In this document: piece after piece, positions 1,401 to 11,192 of the stretch
How positions within the stretch are numbered: the first letter of the stretch is position 1
Layout: the number at the start of each line of letters is the position of its first letter
Assembly (NCBI GenBank): GCA_044236265.1
Contig: JBIIGV010000065.1
Location: 1-16,098, forward strand
Reading direction: 5' to 3'
DNA: 16,098 nt
Source: Oligoflexales bacterium
GTDB lineage: Bacteria > Bdellovibrionota_B > Oligoflexia > Oligoflexales > RGVZ01
Notes under the pieces: generated by a model
What the model was told of the DNA's origin: nothing
The model's input: the letters and a program-made list of their open reading frames with translations, nothing else
Databases searched by the model: none
Translations under genes and position numbers: made by a program

Positions 1401-1476
1401 TTTTTTCGCACAGCGTTTCAGGAGTTGCGCATTAATCTATAAATTAACCGCTTCTTCATGAGATAGCCTCCAATTT

Positions 1477-1511
1477 AAGAGGGTGGTTCGGTTACGAACC
1501 ACCCTCTTTTT
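1477..1511 (+). terminator. Rho-independent terminator
   Basis: Perfect 14-bp stem AAGAGGGTGGTTCG (1477-1490), loop GTTA, CGAACCACCCTCTT (1495-1508), ending in a T run. Confidence 0.9.
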
Positions 1512-1514
1512 ATC

Positions 1515-1522
1515 GTTAAGTC
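1515..1522 (+). repeat. Left copy of 8-bp target-site duplication GTTAAGTC
   Basis: Identical to 2651-2658 and directly abuts the left IR. An 8-bp duplication is typical of IS66. Confidence 0.88.
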
Positions 1523-1571
1523 GTAAACGGTCCATAACGCTATCTGGCGACAGAAAATAATTCAATCCATG

Positions 1572-1600
1572 ATGCCCTCCAAATAAATTTAGGAGGGCAT
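1572..1600 (+). promoter_or_regulatory. Hairpin sequestering the tnpA ribosome-binding site
   Basis: ATGCCCTCC (1572-1580) pairs perfectly with GGAGGGCAT (1592-1600), covering the AGGAGG RBS just before GTG 1602. Confidence 0.65.
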
Positions 1601-1601
1601 T

Positions 1602-1808
1602 GTGATTTACGAAAAGAAAAAATCAGATAAACAAGAGTTCTGGCAAAAACACGTTCGCGCATGGAAGGCGTCAGGTATGACGCAAGCGGAATACTGCCGG
1701 ATTCACGGTTTAAAAGATCACCGACTGACCTACTATAAGCTCCGTTTCGAAACCTTTTTCGAATGTTGCGAAAGGGACGCCCGGAAAAATGGTTTCGAAA
1801 TCCAATAA
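1602..1808 (+). pseudogene. tnpA: IS66 accessory protein TnpA (HTH), truncated or frameshifted
   Basis: FWQKHVRAWKASGMTQAEYCRIHGL..LTYY matches the IS66 TnpA N-terminal pattern (W..H...W..SG.SQ..YC..HGL). A TnpA-like continuation (KLLMPVKF) lies in the +1 frame after about 1745. Confidence 0.8.
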
Positions 1809-1997
1809 ATTGCTGATGCCCGTAAAATTTCCTTCACCGTCTGTTTCTACGATACAGGTAATATGCAGATTCACGTTCAGCAGTGACTTTTACGAAATTA
1901 TCAATTTCACAATGATGGTTGATCTAGGTCAATGCGCAAACCTAATGCTTATTGTATTCCCCCATTCGCACCATTACATTTTTTAGGAGATTCATCT

Positions 1998-2561
1998 ATG
2001 CGCTACATCAAAACAAGTATCATTGCTTTGGCTTCGTTTGCCTCGTTTGTTGGCTGTCGAGCTGAAATTGAAAAATCACAGATAACTGGAGTGGCACCGG
2101 ACTTCAAAAACGTCGACCAAACTCTCGCTAATTTAAGTGATAATGATTCACTCAAAAATCAATCCATGACAACGGTTGCGACACTGATAAACTGCGAAAC
2201 GCGCAAAAAATCTGCGACCTGGTACAAAATTGGAATCGCTCAAGGTCCGACGCCTTTCACTACAAACGACTACCGTGGCTACATTGTTCGTCACGATTCT
2301 AGAAATAATTCAGCGATGCTGGCAGGTCACCCAGGAAAAGTCAGTTCCGAAATCATCTGGTTACAAGGAAGTTCTTATATCACACGTTTTGAAGATGAAT
2401 TTTCAATCTTCAGACTGGATGTTATTCCAAAAACAAACAGTCTATTTACTGGTGAGTTTTCGACTTTTCTCGATGGCGATTTCAATATTGACCGAATGAA
2501 AATGGATTGTTTCCCAGGAACGATTGATCGTCCACAGTCGATTTCTTTTGAAACTCCCTAA
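1998..2561 (+). CDS. Hypothetical lipoprotein (187 aa), passenger gene inside the IS66 derivative
   Basis: RBS AGGAGA (1985-1990) precedes ATG 1998, which is preferred over the ORF-track start at 1932. Signal peptide MRYIKTSIIALASFASFVG-C with a lipobox-like FVGC. No recognisable family. Confidence 0.78.
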   Translation: MRYIKTSIIALASFASFVGCRAEIEKSQITGVAPDFKNVDQTLANLSDNDSLKNQSMTTVATLINCETRKKSATWYKIGIAQGPTPFTTNDYRGYIVRHDSRNNSAMLAGHPGKVSSEIIWLQGSSYITRFEDEFSIFRLDVIPKTNSLFTGEFSTFLDGDFNIDRMKMDCFPGTIDRPQSISFETP

Positions 2562-2650
2562 TCACACATGGGGTTCGCAAAGCGGGCACTGATTTTTGAA
2601 CGCATTGGCGGGTAAAATTTATACGGGGCATGGGATAGTGGATCGCATAC

Positions 2651-2658
2651 GTTAAGTC
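2651..2658 (+). repeat. Right copy of 8-bp target-site duplication GTTAAGTC
   Basis: Immediately follows the right IR (...GGATCGCATAC) and is identical to 1515-1522. Confidence 0.88.
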
Positions 2659-2675
2659 TATAACGAAGTTATGGA

Positions 2676-3299
2676 TTAGCTCTCGACTCTCATATAGCGC
2701 TTTCGCACGAAGTATACGGTAAAGAAAAGAATTATAATCGCAGCAAGACTTGCATAAATACCGGTCTGGGCCTTTTTAATCACGACTTCTAAATGCTCGA
2801 GGTTCGAGCCAAAAAGATAACCAACGTACACCCACAATGGCACAGAAATGAGTGCCGCAAAGCCATCAAGAAGAAAAAACTTCCAGAACGGTACATGGTA
2901 GCTGCCAGTCGCAAAAAACAGCGGCGTTCTCAAGCCTGGCATAAAACGAGCCATAAATATGACTTTGTCGCCATACTTTTGCACGATAGCTTTTACGGCA
3001 GCATCCCGCTTTTCTGGAAGAATCACAGAGAAAAATTTGGTTTTACGAAGCCTGGTTCCGTAGTGGCTTCCGAGCCAGAAAATGATTCCATCTCCCAGCA
3101 AAACGCCGAACATGCAAAGAACCACTGTGATGTTAAAGTCGATAATATTCCGCGATGCAAGAATTCCAGCGGTCACCAGTGTTATATCTTCCGGGAGCGG
3201 CAGACCGAAACCACAGGCAAGTAATACGGCTAAAATCACAAAGTAACTGTGAGTTCCGTACGGCTGAATAAAGTTTAAAAGATCGATCAATAATTTCAT
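2676..3299 (-). CDS. dedA: DedA family membrane protein
   Basis: Motifs GLPLPED, GD...FWLG, F.ARFMPGLR and F...D..AAL.SVP; multiple hydrophobic segments; 207 aa. Confidence 0.93.
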   Translation of the reverse strand: MKLLIDLLNFIQPYGTHSYFVILAVLLACGFGLPLPEDITLVTAGILASRNIIDFNITVVLCMFGVLLGDGIIFWLGSHYGTRLRKTKFFSVILPEKRDAAVKAIVQKYGDKVIFMARFMPGLRTPLFFATGSYHVPFWKFFLLDGFAALISVPLWVYVGYLFGSNLEHLEVVIKKAQTGIYASLAAIIILFFTVYFVRKRYMRVES

Positions 3300-3681: not shown

Positions 3682-5838
3682 TCAACCAACGCCTATCCGG
3701 TCGGGCACATGACGCAGGGCTTCAAGTCGTTGCGTCATGGCATCAGGAGTCTCCTGGCGATTGAGGCGACCGCAGGTTAGCTGGGGCGCAACGCCAGACG
3801 CCCTGATGTCTTCAAGAATCTGTTCAACACTCAGGTCCCGGCGCGAAACAAAACCTAATCCAGCGCTTCCAAAAGCAGACAGCGTAGAAATCAATTTTAC
3901 GAGCGATTTCTGGTTCTGGTCGGCGCCAATGCCTTGATTGGGGCTCAGTGCTGGGACGCCATCAGCTGGAGTCCATATTTGAATATGGTTTGGCAAACAG
4001 AGTCTCGTCAGAGCCAGGGCTTTCAGGTACTCGCTCGGCATGATTATCGCGTCGCGGTTAACCCGGAAGCTCACTGCAAAGCTGGTCTGGTCCAACGACA
4101 ATCGGCTCCGTAGATTCGTCACGTCTTCGGCCCAAAGGGACCAGTTCATGGCATTACCAGAGGACTGGAGCACGAGTGTTGGCACTGTTGCCAAGTCTGC
4201 GCTTTTCGCGCTTTGCATAACCTGCCATTTGTCTTCAAGAGCCATCGTTTGATCCGTGTGGCTCTCCTCAAGGATGTCAAGGCCGCTCCCTCTGAGGTTG
4301 GCCAAATGCTCTGTGACCTTCTGACAGCTCTTGTCTGCGGAAAGCTTAGCTGCTGAGATACCGCGGAGGACGATCTGTGACTCTGGGGCCGCCTGATGAC
4401 ACGCAGTTGTGATGGTCGTAAGGTCTTTTGCTTGCGTCATGAAAGTTGTATCGAGCACGATGACTAGCGTTCTCATGTTGGAGTCCGCGCCAGTAGATTC
4501 AAGCAAGAGCTTGCGCACTAAGTGATGAACGCTGTCAGGGGTGCTTTGGTTGTCGAGTTCGATAACATGAGACTCGGTGACCGAGTGCGCGGCAAGTGCA
4601 AGTTTACCAGAGGCATCCAAAGCAGCAGAGACCTTGTGGAAGGGAGCTTCGCTCGCAACCCGCCAAAGTTCTGATGGCGCAAGAGATCCACCGGTTTCAA
4701 GAGCTTCTAGACGTTCCATAATGCTCTCTGAACATGCTTCCTCTGCAACAGGTGACATGTGCTGGCGATCATGGTCGTGGATTGGCTCATAGAGTGTTGT
4801 GCGTTCAACTGGTATACGACCGCTTCGACGAATCAGGCTTTCCAAATTTGAGCGCGTCATGATCATCCCCGCGCGTCCACCAGCTGCTCTGGAAATTTTT
4901 TCTTCAAGCACCGTTCCATCCAAGTCGTTCGCTCCAAATTGTAGCGCAAGTTGAGCAATATCCTGACCTAGCATGACCCAATAGCTTTTAATGTGGCGGA
5001 AATTGTCCAAGTACAGTCGCGCAACGGCGATTGTTCTCAGGTCGTCGGCGCCAAACGTGTATCGATTGATGCCCATTTCGTTCTGAAACGGTTGGAATGC
5101 AAGAGGGATAAAGACATTGAAACCCTTTGTTTCATCTTGGAGCTCCCTGAGGCGACGCATATGATCTACGCGATGCTCAAAGGATTCAATGTGTCCATAG
5201 AGCATGGTGCAGTTACTGCGCATGCCAAGGTTGTGCGCTGTTCTGTGTGTATCGACCCATTGTTCGCCGGATACTTTGGTGTCACAGATTTGGTCACGGA
5301 TCTCCGGGTGGAAAATCTCCGCTCCACCCCCTGGGAATGAGCCCAGTCCGGCAGCGCGTAACTCTGTCATAACCTCTGCGATTGTTTTTCTCGCTTTACG
5401 CGCCATCCAATCCAGCTCAACCGCGGTAAATGCCTTTAGATGAACGTCGGGATACGCTTTGTGCATTGCCGCAATCATGTCGACGTAGCGCTGAAAATTC
5501 CACCGGGGGTGAAGTCCGCCCACCATGTGTAGTTCGGTTGCACCTTGTGCGACGGCCTCTCCGGCCTTGGCAATCATTTCGTCGATTTCGTAAGCGTAGC
5601 TGCCTTCTTCGCCAATTTTTTTACTGTAGGCACAAAACTTACAGGAGAGTGAACAGATGTTTGTCGGGTTAATGTGGCGATTGATGTTGTAGAATACGGC
5701 AAGACCGTTTTTACGCAAGTTGACTCGATTGGCGAGTCGTCCCAATTCTTTTAGAGGAGCGTGCTGAAATAGCCAAAGAGCATCCTGCTCATTAATTCTT
5801 TGACCTTGCTCAATTTTTAAAGAGATGTCCCGCATCAT
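3682..5838 (-). CDS. mqnE: Aminofutalosine synthase MqnE (radical SAM) fused to a degenerate CofH/MqnC-like C-terminal domain
   Basis: The N-terminal ~353 aa carry NRHINPTNICSLSCKFC (CxxxCxxC), KAFTAVE, GGGAEIF, NCTMLYGHIE, HIKSYWVMLG and GANDLDGT..EEKI. GGGAGG RBS; adjacent to mqnD. The remaining ~365 aa lack CxxxCxxC. Confidence 0.9.
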   Translation of the reverse strand: MMRDISLKIEQGQRINEQDALWLFQHAPLKELGRLANRVNLRKNGLAVFYNINRHINPTNICSLSCKFCAYSKKIGEEGSYAYEIDEMIAKAGEAVAQGATELHMVGGLHPRWNFQRYVDMIAAMHKAYPDVHLKAFTAVELDWMARKARKTIAEVMTELRAAGLGSFPGGGAEIFHPEIRDQICDTKVSGEQWVDTHRTAHNLGMRSNCTMLYGHIESFEHRVDHMRRLRELQDETKGFNVFIPLAFQPFQNEMGINRYTFGADDLRTIAVARLYLDNFRHIKSYWVMLGQDIAQLALQFGANDLDGTVLEEKISRAAGGRAGMIMTRSNLESLIRRSGRIPVERTTLYEPIHDHDRQHMSPVAEEACSESIMERLEALETGGSLAPSELWRVASEAPFHKVSAALDASGKLALAAHSVTESHVIELDNQSTPDSVHHLVRKLLLESTGADSNMRTLVIVLDTTFMTQAKDLTTITTACHQAAPESQIVLRGISAAKLSADKSCQKVTEHLANLRGSGLDILEESHTDQTMALEDKWQVMQSAKSADLATVPTLVLQSSGNAMNWSLWAEDVTNLRSRLSLDQTSFAVSFRVNRDAIIMPSEYLKALALTRLCLPNHIQIWTPADGVPALSPNQGIGADQNQKSLVKLISTLSAFGSAGLGFVSRRDLSVEQILEDIRASGVAPQLTCGRLNRQETPDAMTQRLEALRHVPDRIGVG

Positions 5839-5859
5839 CGAGGTTGTCCTCCCATAGAC

Positions 5860-6717
5860 TTAATTTACAAGGTGGCGCTCAAGTTCGATTGGCTCAAATA
5901 AACCACAGCGCGCGCCTTCGCTGAATAACGTTTGAATGCCTGTTAGAACGTCAGATTGAAATTCTAAGCTGCGCTCGTTTACGTACATAGAGATGTAACG
6001 GTCTCCCAGCTCAGGATTGAGTGTGTCTTTAGCTGCTGCAGACGACACCGCAGCGGCAATTGTTTGACTGCGATTCGCTAGGCCTGTTTCTATGCTTTTG
6101 CGGTATATACGGTTGAGCCTGGTTGCGACCTCCGCTTCAATATTTCGACTAACAGCGTTGGCACCCAAAGGGAGGGGAAGGCTAAATTTCTTGTGCCAAA
6201 GTTTGCCTAAATCCGTAATCTTGCGAAGTCCAGCAGATGCAGGGTCAAGCTGCAGCTCATGAATCAGAATCCCGGCATCGACATCACCTCGAAGTACGGC
6301 GTCTCCGATATTCATAAAATACATGGGAACCGGTTCAAACGGACCAAATAGAGACTGAGCAGCAATGTGTGCAGATGTGTTGATCCCTGGTACGGCGACT
6401 CGTCTACCAACGAGATCATCGACTCGCAAATCGCTGCTTGGTGATGTGACGATGGCAGGGCCAAACTCGTCACCCACACTGGCTCCTACTGGCATCATAA
6501 GGTAGCGATCACGCAACGTCGGGTAGGCGCCAACGCTGATTGCTGTGATGTCGTATTTGTTCGTGAGGGCCGCTTCGTTTAACTCCTGAATGTCACCCAC
6601 CGTGAAGGAGAACTCAAAATCCTCCCAGTCCACTCTGCGCTCTTTCAGGGCTAGAATCATGAACGCATCATCCGTATCTGGACTGTAAGCTATAGAAATT
6701 GGTCTTTTAATGCTCAT
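5860..6717 (-). CDS. mqnD: 1,4-dihydroxy-6-naphthoate synthase (MqnA/MqnD family)
   Basis: Motifs AYSPDTDDAFM, DIQELNE, GASVG..FGP, GILIHE, LPLPLG and YISMYVN. Start taken as ATG 6717 (GAGGT RBS, 10 nt after the mvk stop) rather than 6786. Confidence 0.9.
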   Translation of the reverse strand: MSIKRPISIAYSPDTDDAFMILALKERRVDWEDFEFSFTVGDIQELNEAALTNKYDITAISVGAYPTLRDRYLMMPVGASVGDEFGPAIVTSPSSDLRVDDLVGRRVAVPGINTSAHIAAQSLFGPFEPVPMYFMNIGDAVLRGDVDAGILIHELQLDPASAGLRKITDLGKLWHKKFSLPLPLGANAVSRNIEAEVATRLNRIYRKSIETGLANRSQTIAAAVSSAAAKDTLNPELGDRYISMYVNERSLEFQSDVLTGIQTLFSEGARCGLFEPIELERHLVN

Positions 6718-6727
6718 GGCGAAGACC

Positions 6728-7759
6728 TCAGGGTATGAATATGGGGTGTACACGGTCACTGCCCATATCCTGCCGCAAGGCAGCAATGACCTTGTCGCAT
6801 TTGTTTGTTGGTATAAGGGCTAAGACGCAGCCGCCACCACCGGCACCTGTGACTTTTGCCGCTGACGCGCCGTGGCGTAATGCGTTGGCCACAACATCTG
6901 CAACTGGTTCCGTCACAACTCCGGCCTCAGTCAACAAATCGTGACACTTGGCCATTGCGTCCGCCAGTAATTCAGCTTCACCCTCTCGCAGCGCACGTGC
7001 CGCATCAGTTGTAATGTCGTTGAACGTTGAAATGACAGGTGAGCCCTGTTCTTTAAACCACGGTTCCGCCTTGCGAACCATGTTGATAGTTGGCGAACGA
7101 ACTCCTGTGTCCAGAAGAGCAAAGCACCATGGAAGGTTGCTTGATCGTGGGCGGTTTACGATTAAGGCTTCGGCATCGCGCCCGCGTTCAAATAAAATAG
7201 CCTGTTCCAAACTTACAACGGAGGTGTCCAGACCTGACGGATTGCCATGGAATCGCCTTTCGAGTCGGTTGGCCAGTTGAGAGAGTCGCGCTGGTGTCAA
7301 AGTAATTCCACAAATCTGACAAAGTCCGCGCAAGAGGCTGACGCAGAGACTTGCCGACGAGCCAACGCCAGCTCCAAGCATCAGCGTGCTATGTCCATCA
7401 ATGGAAACGTTGAACGGTGCAAGTCCAAGTACTTCAAATGCCTCTTGTACCATCGCAATCAGCTGATCGTTGACAGGTTTGCCACCAATTTGAAATTTTA
7501 TTTTAGGCGTGTTGGTTGCCACACGATCGGTGAAAATCCTTAGGTTCATTGATTTCGATAATAATGGAATGGCAATGGCCCTTGCTCCGTAGACAACAGC
7601 ATGCTCGCCGACGAGAATTATCTTTCCGGCAGCGCGCGAATTGGCATCACTGCGAACCGGACCTATCGTGCGTCCCAATTGCTGCGTAAACGTGAAGTGT
7701 AGAGTTTTCTCATGTCCTAGTGCTCTCTGACTCTCAGGCGTCCAAAGGAATTCAGACAT
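6728..7759 (-). CDS. mvk: Mevalonate kinase
   Basis: GHMP motifs GKIILVGEHAVVYG, GAGVGSSAS, E..FHGNPSGLD and AKVTGAGGGGC. The start overlaps the mvaD stop and has a GGGGAGG RBS. Confidence 0.92.
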   Translation of the reverse strand: MSEFLWTPESQRALGHEKTLHFTFTQQLGRTIGPVRSDANSRAAGKIILVGEHAVVYGARAIAIPLLSKSMNLRIFTDRVATNTPKIKFQIGGKPVNDQLIAMVQEAFEVLGLAPFNVSIDGHSTLMLGAGVGSSASLCVSLLRGLCQICGITLTPARLSQLANRLERRFHGNPSGLDTSVVSLEQAILFERGRDAEALIVNRPRSSNLPWCFALLDTGVRSPTINMVRKAEPWFKEQGSPVISTFNDITTDAARALREGEAELLADAMAKCHDLLTEAGVVTEPVADVVANALRHGASAAKVTGAGGGGCVLALIPTNKCDKVIAALRQDMGSDRVHPIFIP

Positions 7760-8825
7760 TTGTCACCTCCCCGAGCAGATCTTTGGCAGTCCCACGAACT
7801 AATACAGGTCCAGGTCCAATTTGATCCATAATAACTCTGACCTGAGGCCATACTTCGGAAACTCTTTTTGCAATGCTAGCACAGGCGGTTGTTTCGCAAA
7901 TCAGATGGACGTTGGGCCCTGCGTCAATGGTAAACCATGCTGGAAGACCGCCGGTAGAGCGTTCCTGTCTTACCCATGCCAGAAACTTTGCAGTGTCCTC
8001 TTTAATATAATTTGCAGCCGGTGTCCCGGTCATCGCAACAGCGTGCATTTCAAGAGCATCGGATTCTATCTGCTCGCCCAAAGCTTCTATATTGCGCGTT
8101 TTAATCGCTGCCGTGACTCGCTCCATTCGCGAGTCAATACCGGCAAGCCGAGCTGGAAAGAACGGACTTCCCCAAGCGGCTTTGTGTGCATCGGACGAAG
8201 ACGTGTGCTTTGAGTGACCAGAAAATACAATGACCAGATCGGATAAGCCCCAGTGGCTTGATGGACAAATTTCAACAATTTCTTGGGAATTTGCGGTATC
8301 ACCTGCCGCCCAATGAACAAATCCACCAAAGATACTTCTACCGGCACTTCCACTACCCATGCGCGCCAGGTGAGCAAGACGCTGTCGCGGCATTCCCAAC
8401 ACAGCAAGCTTGTCCCATTCCGTTTCGCCCGTCAGCGCAGCTGTCGCTGCCAATGTTAAAGCGGCAAAGCCACTGGCACTGCTCGCAATGCCACATGCAG
8501 TTGGAAATGTGTTCTGAGAAGTAATTTCGATGGCAGACGAAACGCGTAGTTCATCACGAAGACGGCCAAGGTGTTCGAATACCTTGTGGGATGATGACGG
8601 ATTATCTGAGGTTAATTCCCTTCCCTCGAATCGGAAAATGTCTCGAGATCCGGGAATTTTTTTTGCACTAGTGATGGTTCGGCAGCGTGTCAGAGTCATA
8701 GATAATGAATCGTTAGCGGGCCATTGCATAGCCGCATCACGTTTCCCCCAATATTTGACGAAGGCGATATTGCTGGGGGCTGAGGCCGTAAATGTCATGT
8801 TCTCAGGAGCCATTGAATCAATCAC
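7752..8825 (-). CDS. mvaD: Diphosphomevalonate decarboxylase
   Basis: Motifs APSNIAFVKYWGK, NTFPTACGIASSASGFAAL, ARMGSGSAGRS and FTIDAGPNVH. Start uncertain: GTG 8825 (7 nt after GGAG) preferred; 8831 and 8813 are alternatives. Confidence 0.95.
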   Translation of the reverse strand: MIDSMAPENMTFTASAPSNIAFVKYWGKRDAAMQWPANDSLSMTLTRCRTITSAKKIPGSRDIFRFEGRELTSDNPSSSHKVFEHLGRLRDELRVSSAIEITSQNTFPTACGIASSASGFAALTLAATAALTGETEWDKLAVLGMPRQRLAHLARMGSGSAGRSIFGGFVHWAAGDTANSQEIVEICPSSHWGLSDLVIVFSGHSKHTSSSDAHKAAWGSPFFPARLAGIDSRMERVTAAIKTRNIEALGEQIESDALEMHAVAMTGTPAANYIKEDTAKFLAWVRQERSTGGLPAWFTIDAGPNVHLICETTACASIAKRVSEVWPQVRVIMDQIGPGPVLVRGTAKDLLGEVTNV

Positions 8826-9927
8826 GATCAAGCTCCTTCGTCACAGGCTGAACAATACTTCTCGATTTCGAGCCAGATTTTTCAGGAATCACTTTGGAAA
8901 CAATACGCGCACCAGAGTCGGAAAATGGAACATTGAGGCGATGCCAGCCAATCGTCCATAACTTCTGTGTAACGGCGCCTATGTCGGCGGTGCGTCCCAC
9001 AATCAAAATAGCATCTTCTCCACCTGCTCCAGTAGGCTTCCATGTCCAAGTCTGATCACATCCAGGTATTCCCTGTAATTGATCAGCAACTGAGGATGGA
9101 AAGTGTGGGCTGCCTACGAAAAGCTGACGCATCGCACCACATGCTTGAATCAATCGCTTCAAGTTATTTGCCTGGGGCCATTGGATCGAGACATTGAAAG
9201 CGTCAATCAAAGTTTCAGAGACGTCCAAAAGCCGCTCGGTCCGATTGGCGCCTTCGAGCCACGACGAAGTTGTTAAGGTGGTATGTGCGGTGGGAGCTCC
9301 CTGGCCACCAACGAAAACGTGCACAATATCCGCGAGATTATTCAAGTCATGCCTGAACCAATGAGGCTTCCACTTGTTGTCCTGGTATTCGTAGTTGAAT
9401 TCAACAAGGCCACCTGCAAACTGGGTGGCGATGTCATAGCCACTGGCAATGCCTTGGCCCTCAGATTGCAGCGTCCAGGCGGCATGCACAGCATCAATGG
9501 GAAGACCGCCAGGTCGGGAGGCGTCTGGCCCGTTTTTTAGGATGTAAAACGCTGTGCAAACACCCAAGCGTAAGGCGGATGAGGAGCCGATCCCGTGTTT
9601 GATTTCGATATCTGAAGACACCTCGACGGTTCCGCCGTGCATCCCGCATCGTCGTGCAGCAAACTGCACCGCGCGGCAAAGCATATCAACCTGCGGTGTA
9701 TGGTCGTCATAAACGAATTTTGGCTCCGGCCAAAGATTGCTGTGAATCTCCCAGTGGGCAGCGTGAATATCCCACTTCACTTTGACCGTCATTCCGCAAG
9801 AGAGTGTAACCGCAAGAGCATGTCCACCCCGAAGCACGGCGTACTCGCCTGCTAGCATAACTTTTCCGGGAATGAAGACTTCAATGTGTTTCAAGAGTTG
9901 GTCGGTCCTCTGCTTGTTGTTTATCAA
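8818..9927 (-). CDS. Phosphomevalonate kinase (GHMP family)
   Basis: Motifs PGKVMLAGEYAVL, KHGIGSSSA, QG.ASGYDIA and KPTGAGGED. Lies between the HMG-CoA reductase and mvaD; the TTG start overlaps the upstream TGA. Confidence 0.82.
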   Translation of the reverse strand: MINNKQRTDQLLKHIEVFIPGKVMLAGEYAVLRGGHALAVTLSCGMTVKVKWDIHAAHWEIHSNLWPEPKFVYDDHTPQVDMLCRAVQFAARRCGMHGGTVEVSSDIEIKHGIGSSSALRLGVCTAFYILKNGPDASRPGGLPIDAVHAAWTLQSEGQGIASGYDIATQFAGGLVEFNYEYQDNKWKPHWFRHDLNNLADIVHVFVGGQGAPTAHTTLTTSSWLEGANRTERLLDVSETLIDAFNVSIQWPQANNLKRLIQACGAMRQLFVGSPHFPSSVADQLQGIPGCDQTWTWKPTGAGGEDAILIVGRTADIGAVTQKLWTIGWHRLNVPFSDSGARIVSKVIPEKSGSKSRSIVQPVTKELDRD

Positions 9928-11192
9928 TTAGTGGTGTTGACGCGTGCGCCATGGTGCTGCAGTAGGTCCAAATTCTTCTGATGAAGGCTCATGTGTCCTC
10001 GCTGAATTCCCTCGGACGCCAATGCGCGCAGTGCCGATAGATTTTGTGCCAGGCCTGTTGCTACAACAATCTGGGCGAGCATTTTTGCGTTGGGTTGGCC
10101 CATGAGTTTGAGGGCAGATTGCGCTGTGGGGTGAAGCTTAGTCACGCCGCCCACGACTCCAACCGCCATGGGCAGTTCCAACTGGCCATGGAGGTCGCCA
10201 TGTAACGTTTTTTTCCAAATGGCTAGCGGACGGTACTTGCCATCTCGACAAGCCCACGCATGGGCGCCAGCTTCAACTGCGCGCCAGTCGTTACCCGTTG
10301 CAATCAATACTGGATCAACGCCATTCATGATGCCTTTGTTATTTGTCGTGGCGCGATGCACATCGTAGTAGGCAAAAAGATAGGCCTTCTCAATGCGATC
10401 GACCACGTCAGTGCCCTTAAACTCTGGGGAGTCAAAAGCGCTGGCCGGAACAAGACATTCAGCGCGCGCCAGTCTGCGTTCGGTCAGGTTCGTGAGAATA
10501 CGTAACCCAATGTCACAGGGCAAAAGCTCCGGCATTAGTGCAGATACTTTCTCGCACATGGTGTTAACGATATTGGCGCCCATTGCATCGCGAGTGTCGA
10601 TGTGCAGATGGATGACGAGACTTTTCATCTCGGGGATATAGTGCCAATCAAGGTCACAGGCACCCCCGCCCCGGGCTAACAGGCTGTCGTGTCCGCGGTT
10701 GGCAAATGCGATCAGTTCATTTTTTTTCTCAGTTAAAACGGCGTCAAAATCACAGTTTTTCTTCAAAAACAGCTGAATCTGTCCGGTCATGACCGGGTCG
10801 GTGGCGAAGGCTTTAAATCCTCCACCCAATCTCGCGAGTTTTGCGCCGTGGCTCGCAGCTGCCAATACACTGGACTCTTCAACTGCCATCGGCACAAGGA
10901 CATCGTGTCCATTTATAAGGAAGTTTGTTGCTACGCCCAGGGGTATTGAAAATGTACCGATTGCATTTTCGATGAAAACGTCGGCTAATTCGCCGTTGAG
11001 ACTTCCAAACTGACCGAGATGAAAGCGATCTGAATCACTCAAACTTGCCGCTTTGACAACGGTCGAAAGTCTTTCCCCAATAGGTAGTTCGTAAAAGCCA
11101 GGAAGTCGTGACTGGACTTTCGTATCTTGCTTATGTTCAGCCCCAGATTGAGACGAATGGTCCGCTTTGGGTTTTAGTTGAGACGTATCCAT
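9924..11192 (-). CDS. mvaA: Class II hydroxymethylglutaryl-CoA reductase
   Basis: Motifs IENAIG, VPMAVEESSV.AA, DAMGANIVNT, NKGIMNG.D...ATGNDWRA.EAG and GIQRGHMSLH (catalytic His). Confidence 0.96.
   Translation of the reverse strand: MDTSQLKPKADHSSQSGAEHKQDTKVQSRLPGFYELPIGERLSTVVKAASLSDSDRFHLGQFGSLNGELADVFIENAIGTFSIPLGVATNFLINGHDVLVPMAVEESSVLAAASHGAKLARLGGGFKAFATDPVMTGQIQLFLKKNCDFDAVLTEKKNELIAFANRGHDSLLARGGGACDLDWHYIPEMKSLVIHLHIDTRDAMGANIVNTMCEKVSALMPELLPCDIGLRILTNLTERRLARAECLVPASAFDSPEFKGTDVVDRIEKAYLFAYYDVHRATTNNKGIMNGVDPVLIATGNDWRAVEAGAHAWACRDGKYRPLAIWKKTLHGDLHGQLELPMAVGVVGGVTKLHPTAQSALKLMGQPNAKMLAQIVVATGLAQNLSALRALASEGIQRGHMSLHQKNLDLLQHHGARVNTTN

Follow-up and report, generated by a model that had tools for sequence, protein, structure and literature searches.

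Relic of an IS66 insertion with an intact predicted lipoprotein gene in an Oligoflexales bacterium

The locus and its neighbouring features

The window analysed here is a stretch of 16,098 bp, contig C102 (JBIIGV010000065.1) of the Oligoflexales genome G000, an assembly of 3.25 Mb in 234 contigs that is 88.7% complete; it was studied together with lake and freshwater metagenomes, namely those runs that contain DNA of the window (20 runs). Between a predicted lipoprotein gene on the forward strand (855-1400) and a dedA-like gene on the reverse strand (2751-3267), the 8-nt sequence GTTAAGTC can be read directly twice, at 1515-1522 and at 2651-2658, enclosing 1,128 bp that hold a remnant of an IS66 tnpA gene and an intact reading frame, which we refer to as the cargo. 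Further along, the reverse strand at 3682-11192 carries ORFs that we take to be like mqnE and mqnD of the menaquinone futalosine pathway, followed within the same stretch by what is presumably a mevalonate cluster (kinases, a decarboxylase and HMG-CoA reductase).

The product of the gene at 855-1400 has a cysteine/arginine motif and a Tyr/Asn/Gly-rich tail and is conserved in the genus; a paralog lies on contig C46 of the same genome (G000:C46:2605-3198; 31%, E 9e-24), and searches returned no family at cut-off. To this gene belongs a 3' untranslated motif of about 100 nt (1409-1512, forward strand), conserved in 9/9 genomes aligned (the window and loci L002, L004-L009 and L019), which consists, in order, of a first hairpin, a near-invariant unpaired stretch with CCTCC in it, which resembles an anti-Shine-Dalgarno sequence, and a terminator. 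Both sides have changed in 11 of the 28 predicted pairs, 10 of them in the terminator. A search of Rfam with 1409-1512 returned only sbrA, at E 0.074 and thus below cut-off, and no long complementary target stood out. The motif is a candidate 3'-derived small RNA, and it is arguably more interesting than the IS relic beside it. The intrinsic terminator-like hairpin itself (14 pairs and a T-run; 1477-1512, forward strand), the stem of which covaries across 9 genomes, is a host feature outside the element, which sits directly behind it.

Borders of the element and a full-length relative

The left end of the element begins at 1523 with GTAAACGGTCCA, and its right end, read on the reverse strand from 2650, begins with GTATGCGATCCA. 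A pattern built from three right-end copies in G000 (those of the window, C108 and C39) matched a single contig, L062, among the metagenome contigs, and this contig holds a classical full IS: a complete element of 2,546 bp (L062:1215-3760) with the order tnpA-tnpB-tnpC, the three genes of which exceed the NCBIfam cut-offs for IS66 TnpA, TnpB and transposase. Base 1 of this IS corresponds to window position 1523 and base 2546 to position 2650; its left end aligns with 1523-1738 at 72% over some 215-216 nt and its last 61 nt align with 2590-2650 at 82%, in both cases down to the terminal base. As the termini are set independently in this way, through homology to a full IS66, the duplication goes beyond chance, two random 8-mers of G000 being equal with a probability of 2e-5. 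Its left copy (1515-1522) is given by direct reading and by the alignment with L062, and its right copy (2651-2658) by direct reading and by the strain runs. The flanks of L062 form no direct repeat, and hence the length of the duplication is not confirmed by that relative; two Paracoccus IS66 elements are listed with 8-bp duplications (PMC3281130) and those of ISPa75 are also 8 bp long (PMC12888890). A scan of the whole of G000 for 8-bp repeats beside GTA[AT]...[AT]TAC ends, in which the two ends had to be similar at 10/20 positions or more, yielded two candidates, of which this element was the better (12/20 against 10/20).

The inverted repeats are eroded. The left terminal inverted repeat (1523-1546, forward strand) is identical to the left end of L062 at 19/24 positions and the right one (2627-2650), within the 61-nt right end at 2590-2650 (forward strand), at 18/24, and the two repeats agree with each other at 13/24 positions in the window element versus 20/24 in L062. 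At position 4 of the terminus, A is found in all 9 other ends compared and T in the right end of the window. About 341 nt of the IS remain on the left and 61 nt on the right, and the roughly 726 nt in between are cargo. The segment 1523-2650 is the relic of an IS66 insertion enclosing an intact gene for a predicted lipoprotein. A sequence-only reading of this DNA had seen an 8-bp direct repeat around 1,128 bp, had attributed the segment to IS66 and had proposed a search for a full IS66 with the same ends. The repeat proves to be real and to lie exactly at both homology-defined termini; the attribution is upheld by the homology of the ends to L062, a TnpA profile match and a true target-site duplication; and L062 is the full element that was sought.

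The tnpA remnant

Preceded by a ribosome-binding site at 1591-1597, the tnpA remnant occupies 1602-1863 on the forward strand, as judged by profile and by comparison with L062. Its first 48 codons are in frame (1602-1745) and the uninterrupted ORF extends to 68 aa (1602-1808), scoring 57 bits against NF047593, for which the cut-off is 28, in a match to positions 1-42 of the 79 in the profile; the TnpA N-terminus is 72% identical to that of L062 over 51 residues. That the differences from L062 are mainly synonymous (pS 0.95, pN 0.16) indicates that the parent diverged while functional, and on these coding comparisons the true parent IS is a diverged relative of L062.

Downstream, a TnpA-like KLLMPVK in the +1 frame aligns with KLFIPLK of L062, 61 nt standing where L062 has 60. 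The match in the shifted frame is weak on score (9/500 shuffles against L062; HMM E 0.01-0.06). A closer IS is represented in run X19 by one contig of 151 nt, with 10 differences in 67 nt, and by eye this contig runs on in frame with sequence like the shifted-frame TnpA. On the exact register and the in-frame contig, and despite the weak score, we take the frame to have probably shifted by +1 within 1746-1806, with truncation following near 1863. An inverted repeat of 15 nt at 1745-1800 (14/15 complementary, with a 26-nt gap) spans the probable frameshift site. Profiles for TnpB (PF05717) and TnpC (PF03050) matched neither in the element nor in G000 (88.7% complete), in agreement with the earlier description of a segment that has a broken tnpA and neither tnpB nor tnpC.

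Two further ideas about the stub were rejected. Purifying selection appeared to be indicated by 3/3 synonymous variants, one of which, at 1712, derives from another IS contig, leaving two, which are too few. Shared ancestry with a G011 tnpA cut near the same codon was set aside after inspection by eye, the sequence downstream of that cut recurring elsewhere in G011.

The cargo gene and its family

The cargo gene (1998-2561, forward strand; ribosome-binding site AGGAGA at 1985-1990) encodes 187 aa in an intact frame, with a basic-hydrophobic leader that by eye ends in FVGC at residues 17-20; the product is a predicted lipoprotein, with Cys20 as the putative lipidation site. An aligned Cys motif is present in 4/5 members of the cargo family. 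Among the strains the gene shows one synonymous and one non-synonymous variant and no break in the frame, and its GC content is 0.41 (genome, 0.48).

A search with the single sequence found its own cluster only. A homolog exists in G014 (E 1.2e-5, 28%), and G000 itself has a paralog at C13:57998-58513, 26% identical, with a tblastn E of 0.033 alone; the three proteins have in common C-E, W, G, V-x-H-D and K-x-D-C motifs. A profile of these three retrieved 6 proteins, 4 of which are the same genes or a fragment and 2 of which are new, and the family was found in 2/130 genomes of the class. The cargo belongs to a small family that has no name and in which two cysteines are invariant. Its earlier description as an orphan is therefore too strong, given the paralog, which has the same upstream motif, and the G014 homolog, while the statement that the gene is intact stands. 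In both C13 and G014 the relative of the cargo has a related lipoprotein gene as its neighbour (seen by eye), to which nothing in the element corresponds. These two-gene pairs of unnamed lipoprotein-type genes (G000:C13:57267-58513 and, in G014, L020:3318-4497) have their order swapped, and the C13 pair has no clear match in the 5 congeners searched (one 30-nt match), which suggests that it is itself accessory.

The 55 nt at 1919-1973 (forward strand), which begin with an imperfect palindrome, resemble the upstream region of the C13 paralog (0/2,000 shuffles). That this motif is kept between genes whose proteins are so far apart suggests that it has a regulatory function and moved together with the gene, and from this comparison 1919-1973 is likely the native regulatory region of the cargo. 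A sigma-70-like site was not found in the motif. We also considered the palindrome at 1919 as an FNR-like site, applying what we take to be the FNR consensus, and rejected it for want of enrichment (42 sites with the 4-nt spacer versus 27-70 for other spacers). On the 3' side of the gene, a weak terminator-like hairpin at 2573-2587 (feature 2573-2597, forward strand) has its T-run within the IS end; 3 terminator-like sites of the kind that follows the cargo were found against 1.2 +/- 1.2 in shuffles, a weak signal.

Searches for function gave little. The cargo matched no Pfam or NCBIfam family at cut-off, and HMMER against 1.84 billion representatives gave 4 matches at E <= 0.001, one of them a fragment of the cargo gene itself; the other three are long or repetitive proteins and were treated as spurious (one was inspected). 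Atlas matches, at 0.85, are to unnamed clusters and serve as leads only. Both AlphaFold models are poor (pLDDT 43 and 41) and suggest, unreliably, an all-beta domain from about residue 66; fold searches covered the first model, for which Foldseek returned nothing at E <= 0.001 and the best VIA-align Z, 5.3, is uninformative. Most plausibly, and this is a guess, the cargo would be an accessory surface or periplasmic binding protein in the envelope.

The insertion site in relatives

The flanking region was matched in all 12 congeners, and in 8 of these the slot is empty (in 7 by spacing, and in G010 by adjacent flanking genes as seen by eye). In G012 it holds a different gene of 630 aa, and G003, G007 and G009 are without synteny in the stretch compared; the cargo was found in 0/12. 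Measured from a conserved upstream motif, the dedA anchor lies 201-322 nt away in the 7 congeners, versus 1,369 in the window, and subtracting the element and one repeat from the latter gives 233, compared with 232 in G008, the closest congener. An empty site without the cargo, as foreseen by the sequence-only reading, is thus what these 8 relatives have. The junction that had been foreseen for such a site is confirmed in its spacing only, as the GTTAAGTC 8-mer is not conserved in G008. Together, the low identity to the paralog and the absence from all congeners searched make an outside origin of the cargo probable.

The gene in the G012 slot (L019:1481-3577 on G012:C334) bears a lipobox, has weak matches to beta-propeller repeats (PF00058) and lies, without IS66 ends, between 8-nt repeats TTGTGACG at 1481 and 3570, a third copy of which occurs within the gene. 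It is an independent fill of the slot, which can therefore accept envelope genes without IS66.

Strain runs and the age of the insertion

Eight of the 20 runs were compared, X9 and X10 among them being apparently the same data set. The element is present across the left junction in 5/8 runs (X9, X10, X11, X19 and X20) and the right junction is bridged with the element in 3/8 (X9, X10 and X11); a joint that skips the element occurs in 0/8 runs, at depths of 2-9 and in contigs, which drop rare variants. Over the roughly 1,074 element bases covered, X9/X10 show 8 differences from G000 (0.7%), one of them at position 2649, the second base of the right repeat. X11 has a variant at 2657, in the right copy of the duplication, on one contig at depth 3.5, which may be an error.

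Since the same site is occupied in strain types some 0.7% apart, with variants in the repeat and the duplication, the element looks fixed in the species and not recent, and the earlier suggestion of a fairly recent event, which rested on the unmutated duplication, is not supported. The insertion predates these strain types, and the empty slot in G008 probably places it after the split from that genome. For 8 sites the chance of remaining unchanged is 0.43 at 10% difference and 0.20 at 18%; the intact 8-mer is accordingly weak evidence of recency, and leans slightly towards a later move. In the neighbouring dedA-like gene, the runs show 21 variant positions, all synonymous and mostly common to X9, X10, X11 and X19, next to an element that is ~0.7% divergent, and this gene would seem to be a recombined allele, bounded near 2750.

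Sibling copies, helpers and loose ends

The collections searched for further copies have gaps and exclude very near genomes. In G000 a single two-ended copy was found. A query with the full IS against 21 family genomes detected no second two-ended copy of the mini-element, and turned up loose ends in both G011 and G002 and, in G010, a full IS66 that is more distant; a left-end query of 94 order genomes gave no matching left end with cargo, its one genuine match being to a broken tnpA end in G011. The window right end recurs in the 21 family genomes only at the 3 places in G000, and its pattern occurs in 0 stretches of the genome contigs. None of 147 pattern matches to the cargo protein in metagenome contigs was confirmed, nor any of 84 to the tnpA stub in genome contigs, and nothing was found with the left-end pattern in viral contigs or with the element in plasmids.

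What was found of this IS type consists mostly of fragments. The other right ends of G000, C108:5027-5179 and C39:1521-1581, are single ends for which neither a matching left end nor a duplication is present further upstream on the contig, and the left flank in G011 pairs with neither G011 right flank. Loose ends of the same type lie on G011 C33, C46, C30 and C6 and on G002 C287 and C148, several beside other broken mobile elements; as such ends are common in the genus, decay after insertion is the usual fate here. All four long right ends (L062, G000 C108, G011 C46 and G002 C287) are without a passenger. Matches at G000 C63 and C13:32249 were discarded as apparent chance, and a tnpA-like stub in G009 has no IS66 ends in the stretch viewed.

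Full IS66 transposases are present in 5/12 congeners, so a helper could once have existed. The prediction of sibling elements with the same ends and another cargo or site found no counterpart in the collections searched and, with neither sibling copy nor helper transposase detected, the proposal that the element was mobilised in trans is not supported.

Comparison with known systems

Classical IS66, as exemplified by L062, is like the element in its GTAA-type ends, 8-bp duplication and TnpA N-terminus. In contrast, the element has neither tnpB nor tnpC, measures 1,128 rather than 2,546 bp, has a broken tnpA and a right end that begins GTAT, and carries a cargo gene. The mobile insertion cassettes (MICs) of Bacillus cereus derive from IS231, of the IS4 family. 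They too have IS-type ends round a non-transposase gene and are without a transposase of their own, whereas our element belongs to another IS family, is seen at one site with one cargo and no movement found, and keeps a tnpA stub; these MICs are described as non-autonomous elements in PMC3281130. MITEs, according to PMC3189936, are generally < 300 bp and are internal-deletion derivatives moved in trans. Like the element, they have lost the transposase internally and retained the ends, but the element has 1,128 bp, a protein-coding cargo and a single two-ended copy.

The tIS category of TnCentral covers IS1595 and IS66 (10.1101/2021.05.26.445724). The passenger-carrying IS66 elements (tIS66), for instance ISPa75 with fosZ, share with the element IS66 ends, 8-bp duplications and a passenger by the right end with what, in the element, is likely its own upstream region; in PMC12888890, fosZ lies downstream of the DDE transposase and has its native promoter. 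The same report gives ISPa75 as keeping its three transposition genes and as having ten different duplications, neither of which holds for the element, the passenger of which moreover is a predicted lipoprotein. Lacking both the transposition genes of tIS66 and the repeated occurrence of MICs, the element is filed here as an IS66 relic with cargo; in its workings it resembles a decayed tIS66 and in its appearance a mobile insertion cassette. No transposase-less IS66 cassette was found in the literature searched, which comprised listings and partial texts; Table S5 of PMC12888890, on IS66 members with passengers, may include transposase-less cases.

Order of events

The sequence-only reading had offered mobilisation in trans or later capture of the cargo; a third order, autonomous arrival followed by deletion, fits at least as well. 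Our preferred reading, to which we assign a probability of roughly 45%, is that a passenger-carrying IS66 inserted here and then lost tnpB, tnpC and the end of tnpA by internal deletion. In an IS66 of the L062 type, the gene would first have been picked up together with its own upstream region, at a point in the non-coding stretch ~61 nt short of the right end of the IS, and the transposase of that IS would have inserted the whole element behind the host terminator, between two convergent genes, disrupting nothing. Some 2.1 kb of IS sequence would then have been lost, while tnpA and the inverted repeats decayed. The cargo may be expressed from its own upstream region, lipidated at Cys20 and exposed in the envelope, where it would form a small beta-rich domain held by disulfide bonds. 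Under all three orders of events the element now appears immobile.

This reading is slightly favoured by the orientation and position of the cargo, which lies in transposase orientation immediately before the final 61 nt of the IS and brings what is likely its own upstream region, by the foreign-seeming character of the gene, and by the failure to find a sibling or helper. It would lead one to expect a leftover of IS 3' non-coding DNA before the cargo, and the unassigned 55 nt across the left junction (1864-1918, forward strand) bear a faint resemblance to the IS66 3' non-coding region; such likeness left of the cargo reaches 33/2000 shuffles with 1 of 4 IS copies, and with the four copies together 462/2000 (475/3000 in matched genomic windows). 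Against the arrival of an intact passenger-carrying IS66 count the lack of any autonomous IS66 with this gene among those found and the long right ends without a passenger, and a later move of an element already degenerate would account somewhat better for a duplication that is intact next to repeats that are not.

That later move would be the transfer to this site, in trans by an IS66 transposase, of a ready-made cassette already without transposase, which was later stranded. We regard this as somewhat less probable than the preferred reading. Both ends and an exact duplication are retained, the duplication being unaltered whereas the repeats have 5 and 6 mismatches to L062 in 24 positions, and a helper is conceivable, given the transposases of the congeners and the closer IS of the freshwater run. 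However, no second two-ended copy was found in G000, in the family or order genomes, or in genome or metagenome contigs, G000 gave no match to TnpB or TnpC, and the other remnants are single ends with unpaired flanks. That the element is an IS66-family mobile insertion cassette, which would ferry an envelope lipoprotein gene and its regulatory region between lake bacteria in trans, is of similar probability.

Least probable of the three orders, by a small margin, is that a classical IS66 landed first and that a foreign fragment with the lipoprotein gene replaced its interior by illegitimate recombination, which would agree with the IS66-free fill of the G012 slot, the passenger-free long right ends and the lack of nearby IS66 ends at both of the remaining genomic members of the cargo family, but would require a foreign gene to hit a 2.5-kb target in transposase orientation while sparing both ends, in a layout that matches described tIS66 passengers and at a site where none of the 8 runs has a full IS.

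Implications

IS66 elements with passengers, mostly resistance genes, are already known, and the mechanism is consequently not new. What the locus illustrates is a small, rare envelope gene that likely entered a genome by way of an IS, in a harmless slot behind a terminator, and that has outlasted its decayed vehicle. Were the transposase-less form to be demonstrated at another site, mobile insertion cassettes would extend to IS66, and this would constitute a route for the swapping of surface proteins.
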